From Promethearchaeota archaeon (GTDB lineage: Archaea > Asgardarchaeota > Lokiarchaeia > Sigyniarchaeales > SOKP01), in NCBI GenBank assembly GCA_019057795.1, contig JAHLWS010000082.1:161538-185537 (forward strand): a stretch of DNA of 24,000 nucleotides. The letters are read 5' to 3'. The position numbers were made by a program, and so were the translations under genes. Of this stretch, positions 5,198 to 23,066 are shown piece after piece (position 1 is the stretch's first letter; every line of letters starts with the position of its first letter). The notes under the pieces were generated by a model. That model worked only from the letters and a program-made list of their open reading frames with translations, searched no databases and was not told the DNA's origin.

Positions 5198-6814
5198 ATG
5201 GAGATCATTATATTAATAATAGCATTATCAGATTGGAGAGTTCAAAATATTGGACTTTTTCTTGATTATTTAGAAGAATTAGAGGAAAAACCAGATGTTA
5301 TAGTCTATGCTGGCGATGATATAGAACGATTTAATCGAGTGGAATACAGATTTTTGCCAAATGAAGAAAAAAAAGAACGAAGGAATCGATTTATTGAGAA
5401 GAATCAATCATTTAAAGCATTAGATAAAAAATCCTTAGAAGATAATATCCAAAAATATGAAAATGAAACCAAGAGTGATGTAAATAAATTTGAAAAAATA
5501 GCGAACTATTCAAAATATGGTTTGTGTGCAGTTGCAGGAAACGACGATCCTCCTTATTATAAAAATGCAATAAATGGAAAAAACGTGCATAATATACACG
5601 ATAACCCAATCGTTATCGACAACTTTGCATTAATTGGGATAGAAGGAACTGTTAGTGAAATAGGTACACTTTTACATACTGAAAAAGAAGTGAAGACTCA
5701 TTTGAAAAATATGGTAAATCGAGTTGGTAATAAGCAATTAATTATCGTTTCACATTCCCCACCATTTAAAATCCTTGATTTCGCTATGAGATTTGGCAAA
5801 AGTCATATAGGTTCTACTTCGTTAAGAAATTTTATTGATAAGTATACTGATAGAACAAGAATGGTAATTTCAGGGCATGTTCACTTACAGGGAGGAAAAT
5901 CCGAGAAATTTAAAGACACATTAGTTGTAAATTGTGCGTCTCATGATTTTCCTGGATCTCCCGGAAAGGTAGCTATTATAGATATCTCTCCTAGTAGTGT
6001 TGATATAAAATGGAAAACCCATTATGGTTTAATGGATGTTCCTTTCGTTGCAGAAAAAAGGGCTGAAGTATTAAAAGAAAATGGAATTAGACGTATGAAA
6101 CAACTGGCAGCATTATCTTTCGATGACCCTTTATCCAAAAAAATCGGGTCCTTTCCTTTAATCGTTACTTATGCGAAAGCAATAATTTCTAATAAAATCA
6201 TAGTTAAAAAAGGTATCAAGTCTGCTTTTGATACCATTGAAAGCGAAAATATCTACTTCTTTGATGCGGAGTATAACACAGCGACTACACGCTCTGGACC
6301 ATACGGTATTTTTCTTTTAGGATGGATGGATATAAATGGAAAAATACAACAATTATTTCTTGATAATCCTCAGGATGAGAAGAAAATGTTAAAAAACTTC
6401 TCAGAATGGGTAGAGAGAGAAAATCCATTATTTATAGCGTACGGTTCGAAAACTGCTGATGTTCCCCATTTGCGTAATTGTTTTTCTAGGTTTGAAATGT
6501 CCTTTAAGCATATAGAAAATTCATTTTTCGATCTCTATGGTGATTTACTCTATACTCAAAGTTATAAGAAACAAAAATATTTTTTACCCATACCAACTCC
6601 TTGCGGGCTTAAAGATGTCTCTAAGTTTTTAGGTTTTCCCCCATCAGATTTGAAATTGTCTATTGGTATTGAAGCTCCATTGGAATATGAAAAGTTCTTA
6701 AGAAAAAGAAATAAATCTGCTAAGGAAAAAATTAAAAACGATCTAATGAGTTATAATCAGGACGATCTGAAAAGAACCAAATATATTTATGACTGTATGA
6801 AGAAAAAAATCTGA
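5198..6814 (+). CDS. Three-domain protein: calcineurin-like metallophosphoesterase + helix-hairpin-helix + YprB-type RNase H-like (DEDD-like) exonuclease
   Basis: Metallophosphoesterase motifs appear in order: ALSDW, YAGDDIERF (GDxxD), VAGNDDPP (GNHD-like), IIVSHSPP, ISGHVHLQGG (GHxH), covering residues 1-272. An HhH-like segment VPFVAEKRAEVLKENGIRRMKQLAAL covers residues 281-306. The C-terminal part has IYFFDAEYNT (DxE, nt 6263), FIAYGSKTADVPHLR, FFDLY...GLKDVSKFLG and SYNQDDLKRTKYIY (YN-x-x-D), matching the YprB/RNase_H_2 exonuclease pattern. Confidence 0.85.
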   Translation: MEIIILIIALSDWRVQNIGLFLDYLEELEEKPDVIVYAGDDIERFNRVEYRFLPNEEKKERRNRFIEKNQSFKALDKKSLEDNIQKYENETKSDVNKFEKIANYSKYGLCAVAGNDDPPYYKNAINGKNVHNIHDNPIVIDNFALIGIEGTVSEIGTLLHTEKEVKTHLKNMVNRVGNKQLIIVSHSPPFKILDFAMRFGKSHIGSTSLRNFIDKYTDRTRMVISGHVHLQGGKSEKFKDTLVVNCASHDFPGSPGKVAIIDISPSSVDIKWKTHYGLMDVPFVAEKRAEVLKENGIRRMKQLAALSFDDPLSKKIGSFPLIVTYAKAIISNKIIVKKGIKSAFDTIESENIYFFDAEYNTATTRSGPYGIFLLGWMDINGKIQQLFLDNPQDEKKMLKNFSEWVERENPLFIAYGSKTADVPHLRNCFSRFEMSFKHIENSFFDLYGDLLYTQSYKKQKYFLPIPTPCGLKDVSKFLGFPPSDLKLSIGIEAPLEYEKFLRKRNKSAKEKIKNDLMSYNQDDLKRTKYIYDCMKKKI

Positions 6815-12688: not shown

Positions 12689-13051
12689 GAGTAACTATTT
12701 TTTCTTTATATAAATCTAAGTTTATATATTTCATTAAAATTATTATTTATAAATTAATAACATTTTTTATAAACATGTTTACTTTTTTTTAGATATATAT
12801 ATGAAAAAGTATATAAACGAACAAATTCACTTTGTGACATGTATTAAGAGATAATAAAAGGCGACCGGTTATGAGTTTAGATAATTTAATAATGAGAAAA
12901 AAGGAAAGTAATTTGAAATTATTTAAAACAACTAATGGAAAAAAATTTAATGAGATAAAGGTCAGTCATGATTTAAATAATAATGAATATATAATCAAAT
13001 TAAAGACAATTTTTTTGCTTTTTCGCTATAAAATTGAAATAAGGTGTGAAA
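12689..13051. promoter_or_regulatory. Divergent intergenic/promoter region between the CARF-wHTH gene and the Cas4-HerA operon
   Basis: 363 nt and extremely AT-rich. TATA-like TTTATATAAA lies at 12705-12714 and TTTATATA at 12721-12728, close to the minus-strand ATG (12688). A perfect 10-nt palindrome AAACATGTTT lies at 12771-12780, with a second ACATGT at 12837-12842. GCTATAAAATT lies at about 13024-13034, and the SD-like AGGTG at 13042-13046 sits 5 nt before ATG 13052. Confidence 0.4.
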
Positions 13052-15667
13052 ATGGGCGCTGAAATCTCTTTTCCGTCGGGAAAAATCCCTATATCAACGT
13101 TAGAAAGGTATTCTTATTGCAAAAAACAAGGGATTCTCTCGATAAGAAAGAAAGAAATAAGAAAAAAAGACACAAAAAAAAAAGTTATAGGACGAATCCT
13201 TCACGAAGTTTTTAAGAATTTTCACGAAGAATGGACAGATATTATGTATAGCCGCCGTGAAAAACGATGTGGTATTAACCGTTTAAAATTAATCCTCGAA
13301 GCAGCTGTGGACCAAGCAAGGGTAACAATGGAAAGCGATCCATCGTATTTGGCCTATGAAGCTCCACTCAATAAAGGTTTTAAGAGGATGATGGAGGGTC
13401 GGAACGGATTTGTGTCTCAAATTAGCAACGCTGCCAGAAAACTCGCAAAAAATAATGATCTTTTTAGATCTGATGAACTACCTCGAACTTATTTCAAAGG
13501 AGAGCCGAAGTTTGAATGGGATGTAGGATTAGAACATTCTCAGCTATACGGAAGAATCGATTGTTTGGTTGAAAAAGAACAAGAACGCGAATTTTTTATA
13601 TGGGAGTTCAAAACTGGAATTGTTCCCGACGAACCTTTTGAAGGTCACGTCTTAGAAGCGGTTGGGTATGCTGTTGTATACGAACAAGAAAGCGAAATGA
13701 AGTGTATAGGACTAAAAATCCTTTATTACGGCGAAAAGGAATTTAATATAGCGTTCACCGATTTCCATAGGGATAAAGTTAATTCCCAAATCCAAGAACT
13801 GTTTGATTACGAAGAAAAAGGAGATATTCCTCACGTTTTAATGGGTAGTAAATGTAATGAATGCGATTTTTATGATGATTGCGTTAAGGAAAGCAAAGTT
13901 ATACAATTGTCTGGAGCAGAAGAAGACATCTCCGAAACAATCGATTCGGATTTAGATTTGGAGAAAGAAGAACAAGAATTAGAAAGTTTTGAAGAGACGG
14001 TAACTGAATCCGGTGAAATAGAAAAAACAACTCCAACACCAATACAAAAAGAAGTGAAATCAACAACAACTAAGAATGATAAACAAGCTATTTCTACTCC
14101 AAAAATGTTAGCAGATAAGGAATTTGTTCCTAAAGAAGCTATTGGGATCGTCATACAATCGGAACAACGCGGATACTTGTTATCTACAGAAAAGAGCAAT
14201 CTGCTCTCAGGTGCGATAAAGCAAGAATTTCAAAGGAAGTTGTATCCTGGTCAGGTTCTGATAACAGCGAACGAGAAAATAAAAGAAATGCCATCTGCCA
14301 TCGTAGAAGTGAAAGAAATAAAATCCTTTCCTAAGACGCTCTCCGCCCCGTTTCGCAAGATTGAAATGTTCAATATTTTGATCGAGACTTCTCCTTTTAT
14401 GTATTACGAAAATCAGCGGTATTCAAAAGTTTTGTTTCCAGCTAATTTTTCCAGTCATTATTTTAGACTTCCTTCTAAACCAGAATTGATGAGAATCATG
14501 AATTTGTTTGGTGAGGGGATCAATTTAGGATTAGTCACTTACGAAATGTTAGAAAATGAATTACCCGACATGGAACTTATTTATAAATACCCGTTCTCGT
14601 TTAAGGAAACGGGGTATAAAGGGATATTTGTTGTTGGTTCTCCTGGAAAGGGAAAGACTAATTTATTAAAAATTCTAATCAATGGCATATCGCAATATGT
14701 CGGAACAAGAGATGGACTGCCTCCAGCTGTTATAGTATTAGATATCACAGGGCAATTTGGTCAGCTTGATAAGCCCACTAAATATGCTACAACCTTTGAC
14801 GAGGAACTTTGGAAATTATTGGATATGAAAATAGTGAATAAATTAAAAGTATTTAAGATTATACATGATTGTGGCGATGGAACGCACACACTATCGTTAA
14901 ACGCCATAGATCCCGAACTAATTAGTTTATTGTTTCCAGAGTTGCCCCCCACTTCTTCCACGAATTTTAAACGGATGGTTAAGATGATATTCAAGGATTA
15001 TCCCGCAGTCAATTATGAGAATTTTGCTAACAAAATTAACGAAATCATACGACGAGAAAGCAGCACGCTAAACTCTCAAGTTGCTAAGGCAATACAAGGG
15101 GCAATAACTAATGGACCCATTGATATTTTTGATCAAGGAGGTAAAGTATTACAAGTAAAGGATATTTTAGTACCTGGTCAAGTATCTGTCATCCAAATCG
15201 ATCACATTGTCGATAAAATGCCGGTTTTATTATATTTACTTTTGATGATTAACAGAAAGAAGATTTACGAAAACGATCAAACACCCGTTATAATGGTACT
15301 AGACGAAGCTCACGAGCTATTTCCAAAAAGTGCTAATCCCGGAGAAAAAGAATATTTGCGACGGGTTTCCCAGAGTTTAATTCGAATCGCTCGACGCGGA
15401 AGGAAAAAGCACTTTGGTTTAATTTTTGCATCTCAACAACCCCACGACATAATACCTGAAATTATTGGAGTGTTCCAAACTAAAATTATTATGGGTTTAG
15501 AAGCAACTTCAGGGAATTGGATAAAAGATACGCTTGGTAGAGAATATGTGACTTTGATATTTAGTCTTGGTCAAGGATATGCTCGAATTTGGAACGCAGA
15601 ACTCCATAAGGGGACGTTAGTTCCGTTATTTATCCCAAAAGCACCTAATAAACACGAAGAGGATTAG
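13052..15667 (+). CDS. Fusion protein: Cas4-type (4Fe-4S, PD-(D/E)xK) nuclease + acidic linker + HerA-type (DUF87/FtsK-HerA superfamily) ATPase
   Basis: The track starts at GTG 13046. ATG 13052 with AGGTG 5 nt upstream is the more likely start. Residue numbers follow the track.
Cas4 part: YSYC25KK, GRID172CL, IWE187FK189TG, EAVGYAVVYE, and C270NEC273DFYDDC279 (nt 13853-13882).
Linker, residues about 286-360: EEDISETIDSDLDLEKEEQELESFEETVTESGEIEKTTPTP.
HerA part: barrel-like AIGIVIQSE...PGQVLITANE...AIVEVKEI, Walker A GSPGKGKT (nt 14636-14659), Walker B VIMVLDEAHELF (D at nt 15302), and ARRGRKKHFGLIFASQQPHDI. Confidence 0.9.
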   Translation: MGAEISFPSGKIPISTLERYSYCKKQGILSIRKKEIRKKDTKKKVIGRILHEVFKNFHEEWTDIMYSRREKRCGINRLKLILEAAVDQARVTMESDPSYLAYEAPLNKGFKRMMEGRNGFVSQISNAARKLAKNNDLFRSDELPRTYFKGEPKFEWDVGLEHSQLYGRIDCLVEKEQEREFFIWEFKTGIVPDEPFEGHVLEAVGYAVVYEQESEMKCIGLKILYYGEKEFNIAFTDFHRDKVNSQIQELFDYEEKGDIPHVLMGSKCNECDFYDDCVKESKVIQLSGAEEDISETIDSDLDLEKEEQELESFEETVTESGEIEKTTPTPIQKEVKSTTTKNDKQAISTPKMLADKEFVPKEAIGIVIQSEQRGYLLSTEKSNLLSGAIKQEFQRKLYPGQVLITANEKIKEMPSAIVEVKEIKSFPKTLSAPFRKIEMFNILIETSPFMYYENQRYSKVLFPANFSSHYFRLPSKPELMRIMNLFGEGINLGLVTYEMLENELPDMELIYKYPFSFKETGYKGIFVVGSPGKGKTNLLKILINGISQYVGTRDGLPPAVIVLDITGQFGQLDKPTKYATTFDEELWKLLDMKIVNKLKVFKIIHDCGDGTHTLSLNAIDPELISLLFPELPPTSSTNFKRMVKMIFKDYPAVNYENFANKINEIIRRESSTLNSQVAKAIQGAITNGPIDIFDQGGKVLQVKDILVPGQVSVIQIDHIVDKMPVLLYLLLMINRKKIYENDQTPVIMVLDEAHELFPKSANPGEKEYLRRVSQSLIRIARRGRKKHFGLIFASQQPHDIIPEIIGVFQTKIIMGLEATSGNWIKDTLGREYVTLIFSLGQGYARIWNAELHKGTLVPLFIPKAPNKHEED

Positions 15668-15681
15668 GGGAGCGACTATAT

Positions 15682-17058
15682 ATGTTAAAATTCCTGCCGC
15701 TCGGAGGAGGGAACGATATAGGAGCAAGCTCGTATCTCGTGCAGATCAATCGATTCAACTTCTTATTGGACGCAGGATTAAGACCAAGGAGCTTTAAAAA
15801 TACGCCTAAATACATTAAAATGTTTGAATTAATCGAGGATTGGTCCCAAATCGATGCGGTCTTTATAAGCCACCCCCACCTCGATCATGTGGGCTCTCTA
15901 CCTAAAGTGTTTGAAGCCAATCCAAAAGTCCCTATTTTTGTTCCTGAACAAAGTTTACCATTAATAGAAGTGCAGATATATGGATCTTTAACTTACCAAA
16001 AGCGAATCAAGAAATACGCCGAAGATTATCTAGGAGTAGAATATTCAATCGACTTAGTATCGAATTGTCTATCAAACATAAAAGAAATCGCATATAATAA
16101 GTTAACAAAAATAAAAAAGACCAATGTAACCTTTGAATTTTGGCCCGCAGGACATATTTTAGGGTCAGCGAGCATATTTATTAAAACGAGAAAGGGCAGC
16201 CTTGTATATACGGGAGACGTTTCTACCCATGAAAGGCCCTCAATTCCCGATCTATCTTATCCTTCTCGAAAGGTGGATCTATTGATTATGGAAAGCACTT
16301 ATTTAAGTTCCAATCACGAGATATCACCGCAAGAAGGGTTCGATCAATTATATTTAAAAGTAAAGGACATTACCGAAAAGGGAAACCACGTTCTGATCCC
16401 CAGTTTTGCTTTAGGTAAGGCTCAAGACATTATCAAGATGTTTATCGAGCGTAATAAAGCAGAAGATAATCCCGTTCCCATTTATTTAGACGGTTTGGTA
16501 AAGAAAATTACTCGGATTTATAGCAAAGTGTTAGGTGAATCCCTGTTTTTTAGCTTGAAGGACGGTTCGTGCAACTTTATTTCGGGTATACATAATGATG
16601 TGAATGAATATAAAAAGTTTTTAGAGCGTCATCCAGGGATAGCTATTATTTCAAGTTCTGGTATGCTCCTAGATGGGAGCAAGTCCGCTCGATGGGCAGA
16701 GGCCATCCTCCCATACGAGGGAAACGGTTTATTCTTTACTGGTTATCTCGACGAAGAATCTCCAGGAGCGAAGCTATTAAAGTGCGTCTCCGAAAAAGTA
16801 ATATCTCTTAACGGTGAAATTATCCCACTTAACGCACATATAGATAGATTCTATATTAGTACTCATTCTTCTGCGTCTGAATTGGCTAATCTCGTTGAGA
16901 TGGTAAAGCCTAAAGCCGTCGTGTTAGTACACGGAAATAATCCGGCGCAAAAAATTGCAGAATTTCAACAAGCATGTGAGAGAAAAATTAACAGAAAATT
17001 ACCAATTATAAAATCTATAAATGAAGAAATGATAGAATTAGGTGAAATGTTTGAGTGA
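15682..17058 (+). CDS. Metallo-beta-lactamase-fold nuclease of the beta-CASP family
   Basis: LLDAG (motif 1), HPHLDH (nt 15871-15888, motif 2), AGHILGSA (motif 3), YTGDVS (motif 4), LIMESTY (beta-CASP motif A), STHSSASEL (motif B His) and VLVHGN (motif C His). GGGGAG at 15667-15672 lies 9 nt upstream of the ATG. There is only a 14-nt gap after the upstream gene. Confidence 0.9.
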   Translation: MLKFLPLGGGNDIGASSYLVQINRFNFLLDAGLRPRSFKNTPKYIKMFELIEDWSQIDAVFISHPHLDHVGSLPKVFEANPKVPIFVPEQSLPLIEVQIYGSLTYQKRIKKYAEDYLGVEYSIDLVSNCLSNIKEIAYNKLTKIKKTNVTFEFWPAGHILGSASIFIKTRKGSLVYTGDVSTHERPSIPDLSYPSRKVDLLIMESTYLSSNHEISPQEGFDQLYLKVKDITEKGNHVLIPSFALGKAQDIIKMFIERNKAEDNPVPIYLDGLVKKITRIYSKVLGESLFFSLKDGSCNFISGIHNDVNEYKKFLERHPGIAIISSSGMLLDGSKSARWAEAILPYEGNGLFFTGYLDEESPGAKLLKCVSEKVISLNGEIIPLNAHIDRFYISTHSSASELANLVEMVKPKAVVLVHGNNPAQKIAEFQQACERKINRKLPIIKSINEEMIELGEMFE

Positions 17059-18229
17059 AGAGCTATTAAACCTTGTTTATGAATTGAACGCTAAATGCCT
17101 TCAAAAATTAGAAGATTTAGACGAAGAGACTAAAGATAAAAATAACCATGAATACATTATCATGAGAAATTATGTCCAGAAAAAAGATTTTTATCCTAAA
17201 GATTTGACAAAAGCTATTAATCAACCGCAAAGAGTCGTCCTTAATATGGTTCGAGATATAGGCTTTATCCATTTTAAGAATAGACGATTATATGTCCAGA
17301 GGAAATATTTAGATTGGATACGATTGGTGGTCAAGGATGTCATCATTTTCTTTAACTATCCAATAAACAAAAAAATGAACCGGGGTATCGATTATGTTAA
17401 TTCATTTATGAAAAAGAAGCAACAAATCAAAAATTATAAAATAATACTATTAAACGCCTTCGAGTCGGAAGGACTTTTATTATTCCCGATTGAGTTACTA
17501 AACGAAATGAAGGTGATACTTAAAAACGCAAGTTGGGGTGTGTGTATGTATTATTTTAAAGAATTATACGAAATTTATCTTAAAATGTACCCAGAACTCG
17601 ATTACCAAAGTGTACAATCAGACGATATGGATCTTTCTGAACCAGATGAAACTGATACTGAAGAAGTACTTGATGACAATGCAGAACAACTTGAAGCTGA
17701 AATTTCCATTAATCCAAGAGATTTGATGGAACAAAATCAGAAACTAAATAACGAACTTAGCGAATCTAGAGCGGTGTGCGATTTTCTTACTATGCAATAC
17801 GACGATCTAATGGTATCAATGGATAACTTGAAGAAGGTTTCGACCGAGCAAGATTTTAGAAAAGTGTTTTTGGCGTTTAATTCTATTGAAAATAACAATG
17901 TGCTGGACGCTTTCTTTATCGCTAAATCAACTTTAGATACATTAAAAAGTTCCGGTTGGGAGCCCTTTCCACCTGAACTTAAATCAATATTGTATATTTT
18001 TGATCTTTTTGCAGAATTCTTTAATAGACAAGCCCTTATCACTAATTATAAGTTAGGAGAAGAGGTATTAATAACCATAGAAAACATCTCTAATTTTGAA
18101 TATAAGGGTCAAGAATTAAAAAAAGGAATGGAAGTGCTAGCAAGAGTGCGATCCCCAGCTTGGTATTATCAGGGAAGATTGATTTCAAAAGCGAGCGTTT
18201 TAGAAATTAAAGGTGGAGGAAAAGAATAA
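17042..18229 (+). CDS. Hypothetical protein: wHTH-like N-terminal region, acidic linker, coiled coil and GrpE-like C-terminal domain (tentative)
   Basis: The ORF overlaps the stop of the beta-CASP gene. The start is either GTG 17042 or TTG 17051; the latter has AGGTGA (17040-17045) 5 nt upstream. Residues about 38-90 look like a wHTH (DLTKAINQPQRVVLNMVRDIGFIHFKNRRLYV). Residues 190-222 are acidic. Residues about 225-392 parallel GrpE, with a long helix (QNQKLNNELSESRAVCDFLTMQYDDLMVSMDNLKK...VLDAFFIA) followed by KKGMEVLARVRSPAWYYQGRLISKASVLEIK, compared with E. coli GrpE [29 protein letters not shown]. Confidence 0.8.
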   Translation: MKCLSEELLNLVYELNAKCLQKLEDLDEETKDKNNHEYIIMRNYVQKKDFYPKDLTKAINQPQRVVLNMVRDIGFIHFKNRRLYVQRKYLDWIRLVVKDVIIFFNYPINKKMNRGIDYVNSFMKKKQQIKNYKIILLNAFESEGLLLFPIELLNEMKVILKNASWGVCMYYFKELYEIYLKMYPELDYQSVQSDDMDLSEPDETDTEEVLDDNAEQLEAEISINPRDLMEQNQKLNNELSESRAVCDFLTMQYDDLMVSMDNLKKVSTEQDFRKVFLAFNSIENNNVLDAFFIAKSTLDTLKSSGWEPFPPELKSILYIFDLFAEFFNRQALITNYKLGEEVLITIENISNFEYKGQELKKGMEVLARVRSPAWYYQGRLISKASVLEIKGGGKE

Positions 18230-18230
18230 A

Positions 18231-20948
18231 ATGGCAGATACGACAAGAGAGTTTTATCTAGGAATCGACTTAGGTACCACCAATTCCTCCATAGCTTGGG
18301 GGAGTGTTGGAAAAAATGGAATCTTTAAACCACGGATGGTAGACATGCAATTACCAATGGCAGACGGTTCTTGGGAAGCGAAGCAACTCTTACCTTCGTT
18401 TTTTTATTTACCGAAAGATCAAAAAGATCATGAAGTCGGGTATAAAGCCAAACAAATGTTAAAGACACAACCAGGAAGAGTAATTCGATCAATCAAGACC
18501 AAAATGGGACAGGATTGGAAAAAAACTATAGACGAGAAAGAATTTACACCTGAGGATATTTCTTCTTATATCTTGAAACAATTGCTTATTGGAATAAAAA
18601 GAACTTTTCGAACAACTATAAACGATATTGTTGTTACGGTTCCAGCGTCTTTTGATAGTGAAATGAGAAGCGCTACGTTAGAGGCCGCGAGAAAAGCGGG
18701 AATAAAGGTTAAGAACGACAATGGGTCTCCAAGAAACATCCTATTGGACGAGCCGAGGGCGTGTCTCTATGATTTTGTTAATCGGCAAAAACAAGGAGAA
18801 ATCCCCGACCACATAATAGATTTTTCAACAAAAAAACGCATTTTAGTGTATGATTTGGGAGGAGGGACGTTAGATGTATCTTTACATGAAGTAAATTTTG
18901 AATCCCCAGAACATCCCTTAGTAAATATTGAAGATATCGCCATATCAAGGTATACGGACATCGGAGGAGATAATTTTGACGAAAAACTTACAGATTATTT
19001 GTTTCAGAGATATTGTGAGGAATTTAAGTTAAAACTGCAAGACTATTCCGATATTGAAATCGAATGCGCTAAGATGTCTCTTTTTTATTATGTGGAGTCT
19101 TTTAAGCGAATGATTACTAACGACGCTTTACGAAGAGAAGAGATGTTTGAAGATTACGAGCCGGAAGATGTGCGTCAATCAATAATGGCTGGATATTTGT
19201 TAGAGCAACATCCATTAAGCGTTGAATTATCTCTAAAGGAATACGAGGAGATCATGGAAGAATTTTTAGCAAAAGACATTAAATATCCCACTACATCGAA
19301 TATCGGAGAAAGAATTGGCGAAAGAAACTTGATTTCACCTGTATTAGATGTTTTAAATAAAGCGTTTAAAAAATTAAATAGGATTGTGAAACCCGATTTA
19401 ATATTACTCTCAGGAGGGATGACGAAATTGCCTATGGTTCGTAAACGATTGTCCGCTTTTTTTGGCATGGAACCTCAAACCATTCCCGATCCAGATAAAG
19501 CTGTCTCTAGAGGGGCTGCAATTTACCATTACTACTTACATCAAGGTTACCGACCTACTGCAATATTAGCCGAATCAATCATTCTTGAGATGAAAGACCA
19601 CAAAATGCTAGAACTTGTCCCCTCAGGCGTTTCTTTACCTTACGAAGAAGAGTTTATCTTTAAAATTGGAGGCAAGAAATACGTAGATATTCCGTTATAT
19701 CGAACAGATTCATCGCACCCACTTGCGCAGCCTAGATTTAGTCTTTCTAAACTTTATCCTTCTAAAACAAGAATAAAAGCAAAAATAAATGTCAATTTAC
19801 TTAAAGTAATGGAATTCCAAGCGTGGGTGAAAGAATTTCCCTCAGACAAAATTACTATTACAATTGACTTCAACAAAGACACAGAGCAGAAAAAGACTGG
19901 TGTTGAAGTAAAGCAGCGCATCGAACCTTTCGTGGAAGAAAAAATTGAAGAATCACGACAGTTCACAAAAGAAAAAGAAAGCGATTCTCGTGTAGTGCAA
20001 TATAACGAACTCGTAGAGTTTTTCCATTCGATTCCTTATACTAATAAACCTAATTATGCTAAACTTACAGAGGTAGAAATCGTTAACTCAAGGAATATTG
20101 ATCGAGTTGTCAAAGGGCTGCTTAAAATACAGAGAAAAACTCACCATAAAATAAGGGAAAAAATTATTTTGTTACTTGGAGATATTGTTTCAGAACCTCG
20201 AGTCCACGAAAATTATCCTAATGTTATCTATGGCGTTAACCAAAACATGGTTCGCTATGTGGATATGATACAAAATTTGGATAATCCAAACTCCAAAGAA
20301 ATTAATATTTCAGTAAGATACGCGATTGAAACAATAGGAAAAACAAAGACCGTAGACCTACAAAGAAACATTATAACTTCCTTAATTTCTTGGGTAAAAG
20401 AACCAATCTTTCATAAAATTAGAAGTGCGATACTCACTAGCTTGGGAAAAATGCCACCTGATAACGAAATATTGGCTTTTCTGGTAGAATTTATATCAAA
20501 ACCTCAGAAAAAGAACACTCTTATTCCTTCTTTATGGGCGTTAGGGAAACAAGGATCGAGAGATTTAACAAATCCTATCATTATAGACTATATGGGGAAT
20601 GTACACGAAACTATCTTACAAAAAATGGATTCTACAGTAGATTTTGAGATCATTCAATACATTTCCTACACACTGCTTGAAATATGCAAAATAAATCCAA
20701 ATCATCCAGAAAATTGCGTTAGCAAAGACGCTCGAGCCGGAGTAATACAAAGAATGGAGAGTAAACTTATAAATCTCGAGAAACCCTTTAAAAATAAAAA
20801 GTTTAGCCACTTAGACAAGAAATTAAAAGACTGGGGTCGTTTTTTATCAACTCAGAGGTGGATTAATCTAACAATTCAAGCGTTAAAAGGATTAGAGTTT
20901 TCAGACGAAGACATCGAACTCTTAGACGGTTTTAGAAGAAATAAATAA
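18231..20948 (+). CDS. Atypical Hsp70-family ATPase: actin-fold NBD + SBD-beta-like domain + C-terminal HEAT-like repeat region replacing the canonical lid
   Basis: The track starts at GTG 18213. ATG 18231 lies 1 nt after the upstream stop, with GGTGGAGG at 18212-18219, and gives MADTTREFYLGIDLGTTNS.
Hsp70 motifs: GIDLGTTNSS, VVTVPASFDSEMRSATLEAARKAG, LLDEPRACLYDF, ILVYDLGGGTLDVSL, GGDNFDEKL, LILLSGGMTKLPMVRKRLSAFFG and DPDKAVSRGAAIY.
Residues about 450-555 resemble SBD-beta (ILEMKDHKMLELVPSGVSLPYEEEF...ITITIDFNKD).
The tail has four R-x-x-A/I-x-x-x-L-G-type units: IREKIILLLGDIV, VRYAIETIGKTK, IRSAILTSLGKMP and LIPSLWALGKQGS. Confidence 0.9.
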   Translation: MADTTREFYLGIDLGTTNSSIAWGSVGKNGIFKPRMVDMQLPMADGSWEAKQLLPSFFYLPKDQKDHEVGYKAKQMLKTQPGRVIRSIKTKMGQDWKKTIDEKEFTPEDISSYILKQLLIGIKRTFRTTINDIVVTVPASFDSEMRSATLEAARKAGIKVKNDNGSPRNILLDEPRACLYDFVNRQKQGEIPDHIIDFSTKKRILVYDLGGGTLDVSLHEVNFESPEHPLVNIEDIAISRYTDIGGDNFDEKLTDYLFQRYCEEFKLKLQDYSDIEIECAKMSLFYYVESFKRMITNDALRREEMFEDYEPEDVRQSIMAGYLLEQHPLSVELSLKEYEEIMEEFLAKDIKYPTTSNIGERIGERNLISPVLDVLNKAFKKLNRIVKPDLILLSGGMTKLPMVRKRLSAFFGMEPQTIPDPDKAVSRGAAIYHYYLHQGYRPTAILAESIILEMKDHKMLELVPSGVSLPYEEEFIFKIGGKKYVDIPLYRTDSSHPLAQPRFSLSKLYPSKTRIKAKINVNLLKVMEFQAWVKEFPSDKITITIDFNKDTEQKKTGVEVKQRIEPFVEEKIEESRQFTKEKESDSRVVQYNELVEFFHSIPYTNKPNYAKLTEVEIVNSRNIDRVVKGLLKIQRKTHHKIREKIILLLGDIVSEPRVHENYPNVIYGVNQNMVRYVDMIQNLDNPNSKEINISVRYAIETIGKTKTVDLQRNIITSLISWVKEPIFHKIRSAILTSLGKMPPDNEILAFLVEFISKPQKKNTLIPSLWALGKQGSRDLTNPIIIDYMGNVHETILQKMDSTVDFEIIQYISYTLLEICKINPNHPENCVSKDARAGVIQRMESKLINLEKPFKNKKFSHLDKKLKDWGRFLSTQRWINLTIQALKGLEFSDEDIELLDGFRRNK

Positions 20949-20985
20949 CACTATGATAGTAAAATTCTTATCTTCACTTCTTATA

Positions 20986-20991
20986 TTTTTT
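20986..20991 (+). terminator. Possible oligo-T terminator for the four-gene operon
   Basis: A T6 run lies about 40 nt after the stop at 20948. A further T9 run lies at 21160-21168. Archaeal termination commonly uses oligo-T, but the call is weak in such AT-rich DNA. Confidence 0.25.
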
Positions 20992-21166
20992 GTCTTCCAT
21001 TCAATCTTAAAAGATTTATTATTATTATTTGCTTTGTCTTTCCCGAAAATTTATGACTCTTTTAGGATATAAATCTCATAATTTAATTTCTCATTTTGAT
21101 GAATAATAACAATAATATAAAAGCCTCATCGCTAATAATGGCACGAACGAATCAATCTCTTTTTTT

Positions 21167-21391
21167 TTATCTAAAAATCCTGAAGTATTTAATCCCAGTG
21201 TTAAGCCCACACACAGCCAAAAGTACGATGGACGCGACAATGACGCCAATCATCTTAGATCGATACCGCTGACCGCCCCAAATTAGGCAAATCATCCCAA
21301 TTAAGAACCCAAATAAGCCCATAATCGAACCAAGTGCGATTAAATACTCAACTCCTCCTAAAACCTCTTCGAAATAATCGAATACTACCAT
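21167..21391 (-). CDS. Small membrane protein (74 aa, two predicted TM helices)
   Basis: There are two hydrophobic stretches, YLIALGSIMGLFGFLIGMICLIWGG and MIGVIVASIVLLAVCGLNTGI, separated by the basic loop QRYRSK. Confidence 0.5.
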   Translation of the reverse strand: MVVFDYFEEVLGGVEYLIALGSIMGLFGFLIGMICLIWGGQRYRSKMIGVIVASIVLLAVCGLNTGIKYFRIFR

Positions 21392-21504
21392 AATGAATAG
21401 ATTTAAAAACAGGAATATTTAAAAGAAAAATTATTATTAATTTTTAAGTTGAGTTTCGGGATATTGGTAACTTTTTTTTTGTTGTTTAAGCGAAATACTA
21501 TTTG

Positions 21505-21526
21505 TTTTATTTAAAGGAAAAAACCT
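21505..21526. promoter_or_regulatory. Copy 1 of a conserved 19-nt TATA-containing motif TTTTATTTAAAGGAAAAAA
   Basis: It shares an exact 19-mer with 22082-22100. It lies about 115 nt upstream of the minus-strand gene starting at 21391. The core TATTTAAA / TTTAAATA is at 21508-21515. Orientation is ambiguous. Confidence 0.4.
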
Positions 21527-21596
21527 AAAAAATAATTGAACTACCTACCCCTAAAGGAGCCGGATTCTGCTTTAATAATGGTAAAAGTAAAAAAAT

Positions 21597-21607
21597 AAAA
21601 AAAAAAA
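21597..21607 (-). terminator. Oligo-T (T11 on the minus strand) terminator candidate
   Basis: An A11 run on the plus strand at 21597-21607 reads as T11 on the minus strand. It lies 5 nt downstream of the minus-strand stop at 21612-21614. Confidence 0.4.
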
Positions 21608-21611
21608 GAAG

Positions 21612-21992
21612 TTATTTGAAGCTCTTTTCGTAATTACTTAGCCACGACTTAATCGACTCTATTGTTTTGGAATAATCGACTACTCTGGTGTTGCCACTTG
21701 CGGTCATAGAGCCGGACACTGTTCTCTCGTTGTACATGCCTGGAATCGCTTGATATGTGGCTCGGTTACCTTGTTTTTCTGCTTCTTTCGCGATATCTAC
21801 TCCTAAATCGCGCAACGCTTTAGAGGGGAAAGCTCCGCAAGGAGCAACGATCTCTGCGAATAATTCGGCTGCTTGAACCCACGCGGGATCTTGGTATTCG
21901 TTTAAAGGTGTTTCTAATAATTCTCTAATTTTTAGAGCTATATGGTTGGAAATACCTCCTCGTACGTCAAATTTATGATCGTCACCTGCCAT
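21612..21992 (-). CDS. Hypothetical soluble protein (126 aa from ATG 21992; the track extends to ATG 22034)
   Basis: The ORF is clearly richer in GC than its flanks. The first 14 codons of the track ORF (MINIITSIKRGNKN) are AT-rich, low-complexity and lack an SD. ATG 21992 (MAGDDHKFDVRGG...) has GAGG about 11 nt upstream. No family was recognised. Confidence 0.6.
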   Translation of the reverse strand: MAGDDHKFDVRGGISNHIALKIRELLETPLNEYQDPAWVQAAELFAEIVAPCGAFPSKALRDLGVDIAKEAEKQGNRATYQAIPGMYNERTVSGSMTASGNTRVVDYSKTIESIKSWLSNYEKSFK

Positions 21993-22081
21993 ATTTTTGT
22001 TGCCTCGTTTTATACTGGTAATTATATTTATCATTCATCGTTATTAATTTTCACGTCGTAATTATTTATTCTACAATTTAA

Positions 22082-22104
22082 TTTTATTTAAAGGAAAAAA
22101 ATCT
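22082..22104. promoter_or_regulatory. Copy 2 of the conserved 19-nt TATA-containing motif TTTTATTTAAAGGAAAAAA
   Basis: It shares an exact 19-mer with 21505-21523. It lies 50-90 nt upstream of the minus-strand gene (starts 22034/21992). It could alternatively serve the plus-strand ORF at 22229. Confidence 0.4.
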
Positions 22105-22228
22105 TGAAAATTACTAACTAAGAAAAAAAAATTCCAAACAACTTAAAATCAAATACTACTCGATGAGATTGTTTTTAGTATTAATTTATATTTATAAAAG
22201 TTCAATATAATAATAAGACAAAAATAAG

Positions 22229-22447
22229 ATGGAGTTAGAATTGTTGGATCCAAAAAAAGAATTTAAAATTAACGAATATTTTAGAGCTGTATTGTATAAT
22301 AGTTCGATTCGCATTAAATTTTTAAAAGAGATAAATTTAGCTCGGAATAGGAGCCATAATATAAGCAATAACTTAATCGACATCAAAAAAAAACTAAAAC
22401 AAAAAGGCGTAATAATCAACTATGGACGGTGGAATCCTGTCTTTTAA
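22229..22447 (+). CDS. Small hypothetical protein (72 aa), possibly wHTH-like; the call is uncertain
   Basis: It overlaps an opposite-strand 75-aa ORF (22192..22419) of junk-like hydrophobic composition. The plus-strand product (…YFRAVLYNSSIRIKFLKEINLARNRSHNISNNLIDIKKKLKQKGVII…) loosely resembles small ArsR-like wHTH proteins. Confidence 0.3.
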   Translation: MELELLDPKKEFKINEYFRAVLYNSSIRIKFLKEINLARNRSHNISNNLIDIKKKLKQKGVIINYGRWNPVF

Positions 22448-22528
22448 GATCCTTGGGGATAATTTTAAAATAATAGCGCTATCCAAAAATTTTCCTTTAT
22501 ATAATTAAAAAAAAAGTAGATAGTAAGA

Positions 22529-22537
22529 TTATTTAAA
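22529..22537 (+). promoter_or_regulatory. TATA-like box (TTATTTAAA) positioned for a leaderless or near-leaderless transcript of the 22557 gene
   Basis: The centre is about 24 nt upstream of ATG 22557, and no SD lies between them. Confidence 0.35.
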
Positions 22538-22556
22538 CGAAACTACATGAATTATA

Positions 22557-23066
22557 ATGGAACGATTAGGTAAGACCTTTCTATTGGTTATTGAACCTCT
22601 TGACTTTAGTTTGAAGGAGAATGCGTTCAACTGTAGCGAATTTGGGTTCATGTTTGGGACTGAATCATCGTGGTATCTTAACAATATATTTAAATTCTGC
22701 AGGGATTATTATAGGACTCGAATCGATCATCTAAAATCAAACGCTTTAGGTTCCTTAAAGAAAGAGATCGAAGAAAGTCTGGAACAAATTATTAATAAAG
22801 ACATTAAAAACGACGAGGATTTACTTCGATTAATGGGAATATTTATTGACCTGTCTTTTTTTACCGCATATTCTCGAGATAAAACCACCTATTTAACCGT
22901 ATTTACCATGGACATTGAATCTCAACTTCTTTATTGTTGTTATGTTGGGTCTAACGAATATAAAGATCCGGAGGAGCTTTCTAAACAATTCTTTAAAAAG
23001 ATAAAGAGCACTAGCTTAAATAAAAACGATGGTTCTTGTTTTGAAATCTACCAATTCCTTGATTAA
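22557..23066 (+). CDS. Hypothetical protein (169 aa)
   Basis: A clean ORF with coding-like, GC-richer composition. No recognisable motifs. Confidence 0.6.
   Translation: MERLGKTFLLVIEPLDFSLKENAFNCSEFGFMFGTESSWYLNNIFKFCRDYYRTRIDHLKSNALGSLKKEIEESLEQIINKDIKNDEDLLRLMGIFIDLSFFTAYSRDKTTYLTVFTMDIESQLLYCCYVGSNEYKDPEELSKQFFKKIKSTSLNKNDGSCFEIYQFLD

Follow-up and report, generated by a model that had tools for sequence, protein, structure and literature searches.

We analysed a 24,000-nucleotide (nt) stretch of the genome of a Promethearchaeota archaeon (GenBank assembly GCA_019057795.1, contig JAHLWS010000082.1, positions 161,538 to 185,537 of the forward strand; referred to here as the window), and found that the long, divergent Hsp70 it encodes belongs to a gene module conserved between Bacteria and Archaea. 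The universal core of the module consists of three co-oriented, tightly packed genes, encoding a nuclease of the beta-CASP metallo-beta-lactamase type, an adaptor whose C-terminal half is GrpE-like by remote homology and predicted fold, and an Hsp70 that carries, according to its structural model, a HEAT-like alpha-solenoid in place of the alpha-helical lid. We lean towards the explanation that the Hsp70/GrpE cycle gates the nuclease in a defence system.

A three-gene core in Bacteria and Archaea

Open reading frames (ORFs) were called in 80 loci from a scan of one genome per species and in contigs of seven relatives, and were searched with the four proteins of the window operon and with a hidden Markov model (HMM) of the adaptor. 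A homologue of the adaptor was found directly upstream of a long Hsp70 (865-1244 amino acids, aa) in all 35 assessable loci among the 36 distinct ones, which come from Bacteria and Archaea; the copy in Epulonipiscioides was detected by hhalign alone, at 98.9%. The beta-CASP gene precedes the adaptor in 28 of 29 assessable loci, the exception being locus L008 of the Vulcanimicrobiota. In two loci the nuclease and the adaptor are fused into one protein (L013, 7018-9330, 770 aa; and P0320, 732 aa), which gives Rosetta-stone support for a physical link between them. None of the module partners was present at the approximately 47 canonical dnaK loci of the same scan, most of which have a canonical grpE ORF just upstream of dnaK (44 by jackhmmer).

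Carriers of the module include Lachnospiraceae, Selenomonadales, Oscillospiraceae, Fusobacteriales, Treponema, Thermotogae, Petrotoga, Melioribacteraceae and Poribacteria, among others. The family is nevertheless rare: among 1.84 billion representative sequences the adaptor profile matched 363 clusters at 50% identity, 308 of them at E <=1e-10. A full-text search of the published literature (subscription-only articles excluded) did not turn up any account of a beta-CASP/GrpE-like/Hsp70-HEAT module, nor is it listed in the surveys of type III accessory genes that were consulted or in the 2025 CRISPR classification; the module thus appears to be undescribed so far.

In the window, the core is preceded by a fourth gene, which encodes a Cas4-HerA fusion. 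The four genes form a single, tightly packed operon on the + strand, with spacings of +14, -17 and +1 nt (the last counted from the ATG at 18231); the first 17 nt of the adaptor gene overlap the end of the beta-CASP gene, stop codon included, and a single nt separates the adaptor gene from the Hsp70 ATG. The operon occupies a block at ~13-21 kb (13000-21000) with a GC content of 0.36-0.38, as against 0.25-0.30 in the flanks, and this contrast suggests horizontal acquisition. The initial annotation of this DNA, made from the sequence alone, had proposed that the tail of the Hsp70 is a surface for docking or sensing nuclease/translocase partners or a foreign protein, a function that it may have. 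The genetic lock to a nuclease stood up to comparison across loci, but the conserved partner is the beta-CASP protein. The Cas4-HerA fusion is confined to four archaeal loci (the window, L001, L002 of a Promethearchaeota metagenome-assembled genome, and L088), in the other three of which it also heads the operon, and it occurs in no bacterial locus. The fusion is an archaeal add-on outside the universal core.

The Hsp70-HEAT protein and its GrpE-like partner

The Hsp70 ORF ends at 20948 on the + strand and could begin at a GTG (18213, 911 aa) or at an ATG (18231, 905 aa). The ATG is placed 12 nt downstream of a Shine-Dalgarno-like sequence, GGTGGAGG, and the GTG falls within it; we therefore prefer the ATG, in agreement with the start and the 905-aa length given originally. 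Residue numbers below refer to the 911-aa ORF (subtract 6 for the 905-aa protein).

The nucleotide-binding domain (NBD), which phmmer aligned to DnaK in the PDB at 8e-25, contains GIDLGTTNS (aa 17-25), K95, E180, DLGGGTLDVS (214-223), IGGDNFD (250-256) and SGGMTKLP (400-407). In an alignment of 70 full-length relatives, D19, K95, E180, D214, G216-T219, D221, G251-G252, D256 and G401-M403 are invariant or at least 90% kept, and GIDLGTTN as a whole is at least 90% conserved, so that the full set of nucleotide-binding motifs first noticed in the window protein holds across the family. The string PASFDSEMRSATLEAARKAG, which the initial annotation had quoted as an example of heavy substitution, lies at aa 144-163 (nt 18642-18701) and shares 10 of its 20 residues with what we take to be the DnaK consensus.

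The NBD is followed by a hydrophobic interdomain linker, AILAESIILE. In the AlphaFold2 model (mean predicted local distance difference test, pLDDT, 88.9) the NBD (15-443) is succeeded by a beta-sandwich (450-552), a disordered segment (556-575) and about 16 helices extending to residue 909. Foldseek aligned this model with DnaK and BiP over 590-750 columns at E values of 1e-30 to 1e-24 (best E value for the NBD, 6e-30), the lowest root-mean-square deviation, ~5 A over ~590 columns, being to domain-docked DnaK/BiP structures (7kzu, 6eof and 6zmd). This alignment indicates that the linker and the beta-sandwich are Hsp70-like; phmmer, too, aligned aa 394-513 onto the beta-sandwich of the DnaK substrate-binding domain (SBD-beta). 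The SBD-beta-like segment suspected from the sequence is thus borne out.

We rejected the identity of the protein as DnaK, HscA or YegD because its NCBIfam scores are 5 to 16 times under the curated cut-offs: 128.1 bits vs 648 (PRK00290) and 123.9 vs 822.55 (TIGR02350) for DnaK, 118.4 vs 620 (PRK05183) and 112.6 vs 708.55 (TIGR01991) for HscA, and 20.2 vs 331 for the YegD type (PRK11678). Over 527 trimmed columns, the window protein is 25-26% identical to canonical DnaKs, which are 58% identical to one another, while identity within its own family is 49%. In a neighbour-joining tree, the family is monophyletic (bootstrap 57/100). These results agree with the view of the initial annotation that this is a specialised, non-canonical Hsp70.

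It is barely credible that the protein is a housekeeping DnaK with an unusually long C terminus. Such an identity could account for the NBD motifs, the linker, the SBD-beta and a GrpE-like gene placed upstream as in grpE-dnaK operons, but not for a score of 128 bits against a DnaK cut-off of 648, nor for 25% identity where canonical DnaKs share 58%; furthermore, the window has no dnaJ and the operon encodes nucleases. Many of the bacterial lineages with the module (Lachnospiraceae, Selenomonadales, Fusobacteria, Treponema) are, moreover, known to possess a canonical DnaK. On score, identity, operon content and the missing dnaJ, we rejected this identity. The lack of a J-domain protein nearby, remarked upon originally, was confirmed by the absence of any Pfam DnaJ match in the 14 window ORFs scanned and of an HPD tripeptide in the eight neighbouring ORFs checked. 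The lack of co-chaperone genes that this seemed to imply was only half right, since a GrpE-like gene lies immediately upstream.

The most conspicuous departure from DnaK follows the SBD-beta. DnaK has at this place an alpha-helical lid (SBD-alpha, ~100 aa); here, the model places a solenoid of ~340 aa and ~16 helices (572-909), preceded by the disordered segment. The solenoid comprises five HEAT-type helix pairs and three long C-terminal helices. Repeat units of the form (I/V)R-x-x-(A/I)-x-x-x-(L/I)G(K/D) start at aa 647, 701, 736, 770 and 814, with spacings of 54, 35, 34 and 44 aa; the type of unit is the one named in the initial annotation, but there are five and not four. G656, G709, G745, K746, W775, G778, S782, R783, Y819 and E823 are near-invariant in the 70-sequence alignment. 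Although the window tail searched on its own had no significant match in Pfam, many full-length relatives match HEAT_2 or HEAT_PBS, and an HMM of the tail matches every family member found, at E values of 1e-10 to 1e-120. The replacement of the lid by HEAT-like repeats, proposed from the sequence alone, is thus supported by the model as well as family-wide, and the tail is best described as a predicted HEAT-like solenoid conserved throughout the family. Its first helices (572-624) may be a remnant of the lid.

Some members of the family are longer (1170-1250 aa; L005, 10001-13735, and P0023, P0034, P0040 and P0050). An extra region of ~350 aa, matched by Pfam DUF8426, separates their SBD-beta from the HEAT tail, to which the HMM match is at aa 928-1244. 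Separately, a 1048-aa cyanobacterial Hsp70 of Umezakia ovalisporum (L035, 9575-12721) has a weak match to the HEAT-like tail (2e-4) and neither adaptor nor beta-CASP gene upstream; it may be an independent fusion of an Hsp70 with a solenoid.

The architecture is not unprecedented. CnuD of the type III CoCoNuT systems combines an Hsp70 NBD and SBD with HEAT-like repeats (Bell, Makarova, Wolf, Koonin, eLife 2024; PMC11090510), and it likewise belongs to a predicted defence operon with nucleases; both proteins suggest that an Hsp70 scaffold may serve purposes other than protein folding. One may therefore ask if the window protein is the CnuD subunit of a CoCoNuT (McrBC-derived type IV restriction) system whose partners lie outside the window. 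We find this highly improbable. The partners of CnuD are an McrB-like NxD GTPase (CnuB), McrC/DUF2357 (CnuC) and HEPN RNases, and neither an McrB-like GTPase nor DUF2357/McrC turned up among the window ORFs, in the flanks annotated for seven related loci or in the most frequent families of 146 further neighbour ORFs; instead, the partners are invariably a beta-CASP protein and a GrpE-like protein, with Cas4-HerA in archaea. In addition, the Walker A-like phosphate-binding motif of CnuD is described as degenerate and the protein as a predicted poor ATPase, whereas GIDLGTTNS is nearly invariant here and the catalytic residues are invariant. No dedicated exchange factor is reported for CnuD (PMC11090510), in contrast to the GrpE-like adaptor of this module. 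We thus rejected CnuD membership on gene context and the intact motif, setting the family apart from CnuD by the published description of the latter.

The adaptor of the window had no match in Pfam, NCBIfam or PADLOC. Its AlphaFold2 model (pLDDT 77) begins with a helical domain that includes a winged helix (aa 1-187), which an acidic, disordered linker (190-223) connects to a C-terminal half laid out as in GrpE: a 42-residue helix (225-266) is followed by a helical bundle (271-329) and then by a beta domain of seven strands (332-388). Conservation between archaea and bacteria is limited to the last ~170 residues, which include the motifs NS-x-EN/KYG-x-LD, Y354-x-G356 and SPxW (371-374). The top Foldseek match of the model was GrpE (9a81_A, probability 0.96, with a weak E value of 0.02), and 1dkg_A, 9blt_B, 9bls_B and 3a6m were also among the matches.

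Profile comparison pointed in the same direction. A 30-sequence profile of the adaptor C-terminal half, compared by hhalign with a 45-sequence GrpE alignment built from ORFs upstream of canonical dnaK genes, gave a probability of 96.0% (E 3.8e-9) over 152 co-linear columns. The value fell to 0.9% with the reversed GrpE alignment, but was 94.6% for the bundle and beta domain only (that is, the part that is not coiled coil), and 95.8% after removal of the L003 lineage, which matches GrpE directly. Pfam GrpE was matched by 5 of the 30 adaptor homologues (best 9.2e-6); the L003 homologue scored 20.6 bits (E 3.9e-4) over positions 16-162 of the 165 in the model. A jackhmmer search from E. coli GrpE retrieved the 44 canonical GrpEs of dnaK loci and then the L003 homologue, at 3.7e-7; the seed, a sequence taken to be that of E. 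coli GrpE, is validated solely by its retrieval of those 44 ORFs.

The relation is remote. Against this single E. coli GrpE sequence, hhalign of the adaptor alignment gave nothing; the adaptor profile found only coiled-coil noise and no GrpE among PDB chain sequences, and did not reach canonical GrpE among the 1.84 billion representatives. The relation therefore rests on profile-profile and fold evidence. We call the C-terminal half GrpE-like, and not a member of the GrpE family by curated criteria, because the E values of the fold matches are weak and the window protein is under the Pfam threshold. Compared with canonical GrpE, the adaptor has an extra 190-aa domain containing the winged helix, and the acidic linker. 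A J-like role for this N-terminal domain was rejected: it has no HPD, and its fold matches, although weak, are winged-helix regulators of the MarR/MntR type.

In the Vulcanimicrobiota (L008, 2802-5141; L027, 287-2083) the adaptor is only 196 aa long and corresponds to the GrpE-like part alone; the Hsp70 ORF of L008 ends at 568 aa. This variant hints that the N-terminal domain of the adaptor serves the nuclease. The hint comes from one lineage only, and locus L010 has a short adaptor together with a beta-CASP gene.

Nucleases and genomic surroundings

The beta-CASP protein of the window has a complete set of motifs: HPHLDH (aa 64-69), AGH (156-158), TGD (177-179), ES (204-205), HSS (395-397) and VHG (416-418). 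It matches Pfam Lactamase_B (2e-13), Beta-Casp (2e-8) and RMMBL (3.6e-8), and its best NCBIfam models are aCPSF1 (1.3e-57) and Cas14 (3.7e-47), with scores 3 to 5 times below the equivalog cut-offs. By sequence, it is thus of the aCPSF1/RNase J/Cas14 type, but without the KH domains of aCPSF1 and without the Cas10-like C-terminal domain of Cas14; also, Cas14 is partnered with Cas7/Cas5, and the module protein with a chaperone pair. The RMMBL domain and the affinity to aCPSF1 suggest that its substrate is probably RNA and that it is most likely an RNase.

The Cas4-HerA protein begins with a PD-(D/E)xK/Cas4 nuclease with four cysteines (C25 and, in the arrangement C270-x2-C-x5-C279, C270, C273 and C279) and the motifs GRIDC and WEFKTG. 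An acidic linker connects it to a C-terminal HerA/FtsK-type ATPase with Walker A (GSPGKGKT, aa 531-538) and Walker B (VLDEAHE, 751-757) motifs. Matches to Pfam PDDEXK_1 (1e-7), DUF87 (1e-7) and Cas_Cas4 (1e-4) and to the PADLOC models of HerA (2.8e-16) and Cas4 (3.9e-12) are all far under the equivalog cut-offs. Judging from their motifs, the beta-CASP, Cas4 and HerA parts all look catalytically competent. In beginning with a HerA/FtsK-type ATPase coupled to a nuclease, the archaeal operon resembles the defence and repair machines built on HerA, namely HerA-NurA and the anti-phage systems SIR2-HerA and DUF4297-HerA; here, however, a Cas4-type PD-(D/E)xK domain joined in cis supplies the nuclease, and the pair, which is absent from all bacterial versions of the module, is subordinate to the beta-CASP/GrpE-like/Hsp70 core.

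Table 1. Features of the window (positions counted from its first nucleotide)
Feature	Positions	Strand	Basis
Dsr1-like protein, 1256 aa	7813-11583	-	PADLOC Dsr1 5.7e-46 over aa 309-1221
CARF/Csa3-like protein, 263 aa	11897-12688	-	PADLOC CARF3 1.8e-18; Pfam HFX_2341_N 2.2e-7
Cas4-HerA fusion, 873 aa	13046-15667	+	Pfam, PADLOC, motifs
Beta-CASP metallo-beta-lactamase nuclease, 458 aa	15682-17058	+	Pfam, NCBIfam, motifs
Adaptor ('mid') protein, 395 aa	17042-18229	+	AlphaFold2 model; homologues upstream of long Hsp70s
GrpE-like module of adaptor (aa 225-390)	17714-18211	+	hhalign, Foldseek, jackhmmer
Hsp70-HEAT protein, 905 aa	18231-20948	+	Pfam, AlphaFold2, Foldseek
Hsp70 NBD (aa 15-443, 911-aa numbering)	18255-19541	+	Pfam HSP70 2.1e-37; model pLDDT >90
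SBD-beta-like beta-sandwich (aa 450-552)	19560-19868	+	DSSP strands; pLDDT 81-87
HEAT-like alpha-solenoid tail (aa 572-909)	19926-20939	+	Model pLDDT ~90-97 over 590-900

At roughly a third of the loci, by raw count, the module has neighbours of a defence type. In the window, it adjoins the genes of a CARF/Csa3-like protein and a Dsr1-like protein (Table 1). The former gene and the operon are divergently oriented, 357 nt apart, and the CARF/Csa3-like product may be a regulator of the module responsive to cyclic oligoadenylate (cOA). The N-terminal ~180 aa of the Dsr1-like protein are not SIR2; they have no Pfam match and a weak match to Aga_TIR-PNTD (1.3e-6), and the protein is possibly a sensor of the Dsr1 type whose effector domain has been exchanged. 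Elsewhere, SIR2-HerA adjoins the module in L088, a type IIG restriction-modification enzyme in L001, and an IS66 transposase and a helicase with an MZB domain in L087. Besides the SIR2-HerA pair, the L088 neighbourhood (12712-17893 and 21205-22697) comprises an AAA_11/AAA_12 helicase and the beginning of a gene with a called length of 12,641 residues.

Further from the operon, the window encodes a 538-aa fusion (5198-6814, + strand) of a calcineurin-like metallophosphoesterase (1.3e-6) with a domain of the RNase_H_2 superfamily (1.9e-17); a metallophosphoesterase gene is found upstream of the module in L001, too. A 765-aa protein (665-2962, + strand) consists almost entirely of TPR units, at least 13 of them, whose periodicity is seen in the DNA as direct repeats 204, 306 and 510 nt apart. 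No CRISPR array, tRNA gene or cas10 was found in the 24-kb window.

In five loci the surroundings connect the module with type III CRISPR-Cas. In L003, a Card1-like CARF nuclease and a further cas gene flank it within a type III-A locus, and in L007 it directly follows Cmr2-Cmr3-Cmr6; by raw counts, these are the two of 36 loci inside or abutting type III cassettes, and three more stand beside CARF or type III accessory genes, namely the window, L012, where Cad1 (1e-182) follows the module, and L011, where the accessory NERD+UvrD precedes it. Taken with the resemblance of the beta-CASP protein to Cas14 of type VII, a derivative of type III (PMC12669027), this could mean that type III CRISPR-Cas or cOA signalling uses the module as an ancillary effector, switched on by Cas10 products via the neighbouring CARF proteins, and that free-standing copies are secondary escapes. 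We regard this as distinctly unlikely, given that the link is seen in 5 of 36 loci only, that Pfam, PADLOC and NCBIfam detected no CARF, SAVED or other known cOA-sensor domain in the four module proteins, and that the window contains neither cas10 nor a CRISPR array. The surveys of type III accessory genes and the 2025 classification, as said above, do not list the module either.

A chaperone cycle as a possible nuclease switch

The explanation towards which we lean, gating of the nuclease by the Hsp70/GrpE cycle, would work as follows. The Hsp70 would run through an ATP/ADP cycle that its private GrpE-like exchange factor resets; the intact NBD, the retention of linker and SBD-beta, and the dedicated exchange factor argue that it really cycles. 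The adaptor would bridge the nuclease and the Hsp70, as the strict synteny and the two fusions suggest. The SBD-beta clamp, extended by the HEAT surface, would bind a foreign protein or else part of the nuclease or adaptor of the module itself (the acidic, disordered stretch of the adaptor being one candidate), and the nucleotide state of the Hsp70 would gate the beta-CASP nuclease. In archaea, the same switch would also engage Cas4-HerA as a DNA end-processing motor. The outcome would be degradation of invader or host nucleic acid, amounting to defence or abortive infection, and in some lineages the module would have been recruited next to type III CRISPR-Cas. What the data show is a conserved gene order, the identities of the domains, intact catalytic motifs, the homology to GrpE and the fusions; complex formation, nuclease gating, the substrate and the defence role are our inference. 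Only tentatively, and with less than even confidence, would we go on to describe the module as a self-contained immune system of Bacteria and Archaea, in which an Hsp70/GrpE-like sensor-switch detects foreign or misfolded protein via SBD-beta and HEAT repeats and licenses the beta-CASP nuclease (together with the Cas4-HerA motor in Asgard-type archaea), and which has repeatedly been recruited beside type III CRISPR-Cas.

Several observations weigh against gating by a chaperone cycle, or against a role in defence. No J-domain partner that would trigger ATP hydrolysis is encoded nearby in the window. The family clade has a bootstrap of just 57/100, in a simple neighbour-joining analysis. The window adaptor itself has no direct match to GrpE (the Pfam PF01025 gathering score is 25.8 bits), and the six archaeal adaptor sequences alone reach 61% in hhalign. 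The Vulcanimicrobiota locus L008 has the GrpE-like/Hsp70 pair without a beta-CASP gene in the 2.8 kb upstream. Neither the Hsp70 (best hit PDC-M61B, 0.0065, which is not meaningful) nor the adaptor is matched by any PADLOC model, and matches to such defence models were found in just a handful of 146 neighbour ORFs.

The surroundings also argue for a different function. Most gut Firmicutes loci (Lachnospiraceae, Selenomonadales), as well as L005 and L086, are embedded among ordinary metabolic genes, and tblastn found no full-length family member on 72,556 plasmids or in 50,697 phage records, only ordinary Hsp70/HscC-type genes. In L005 (4803-6240) and L086 (5733-7434), which come from large bacterial genomes, the module has shared flanks, with genes for an S-methyltransferase and a DUF402 protein ahead of it and one for an aminotransferase behind it, which reflects either conserved synteny between relatives or a functional link. 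The module could thus be a non-immune machine for RNA processing or RNA/protein quality control, in which a dedicated Hsp70/GrpE pair targets or regulates an aCPSF1/RNase J-like beta-CASP RNase, for example on ribosomes or particular transcripts, the defence neighbours being incidental. The nearest relative of the nuclease is the housekeeping RNase aCPSF1, it has the RMMBL RNA-specificity domain, the shared flanks of L005 and L086 are as expected of a stable chromosomal gene set, and Hsp70s have been reported to bind RNA and ribosomes (cited in PMC11090510). Yet such a machine seems to us unlikely, for the module is rare and patchily distributed (363 clusters at 50% identity) and its adaptor diverges fast, only 30 word-sharing homologues of the window adaptor having been found. 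The GC island around the window module, the repeated adjacency to type III CRISPR, CARF effectors, SIR2-HerA, restriction-modification genes and insertion sequence elements, and the archaeal Cas4-HerA, a DNA nuclease-translocase with no obvious place in RNA housekeeping, also speak against it.

Compared with known systems, what is new here is the GrpE-like subunit and the conserved three-gene core; Hsp70-like ATPases within conflict systems were known already. The module shares with DnaK-GrpE-DnaJ an actin-fold NBD with the same catalytic residues, a hydrophobic linker, a beta-sandwich SBD and a GrpE-type gene directly upstream, and differs in having no J-domain protein nearby, an operon that encodes nucleases, and scores far below the family cut-offs. 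HSP70 is also embedded in the predicted GAP1-N2 GTPase-centric and DO-GTPase/tubulin/HSP70 conflict systems, in one theme together with GrpE as a regulatory NTPase pair (Kaur, Burroughs, Iyer, Aravind, eLife 2020; PMC7159879). Those systems, found mainly in actinobacteria and firmicutes, involve GTPases, FNIII/TPR proteins and, often, DnaJ fusions, with no beta-CASP protein or HEAT tail described, and their signature genes are not found here. The DnaK-like fusions of PMC12642450 are different from the Hsp70-HEAT family, being EACC1-protease fusions 50% identical to DnaK. Chaperone-guarded sensors, such as toxin-antitoxin-chaperone systems with a SecB-like chaperone, or bNACHT25, which acts via DnaJ (PMC12169576), offer a functional analogy only: a client-binding cycle detects infection and releases an effector. 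The proteins are unrelated, the chaperones are those of the host or SecB-like, and the effectors are different, whereas this module has a dedicated Hsp70/GrpE pair.

On the level of annotation, ~300 clusters of 'hypothetical proteins' can now be labelled GrpE-like adaptors. Although few protein machines have been studied as much as Hsp70, a 2026 review lists its prokaryotic 'DnaK derivates' as functionally unknown and poses their role as an open question (PMC13580251). The Hsp70-HEAT family offers a testable case of such proteins: its ATPase is intact, it has a previously unrecognised GrpE-type exchange factor of its own but no J-protein nearby, and it is obligately linked, in genetic terms, to a nuclease. 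The three-gene bacterial versions, found in gut Firmicutes, are small enough for direct testing. If the role in defence is true, the module would represent a new sensing principle in prokaryotic immunity, with a chaperone cycle as the switch; it would extend the observation made on CnuD from McrBC-type systems to a second, unrelated set of effectors, and type III CRISPR-Cas would gain another class of companions.

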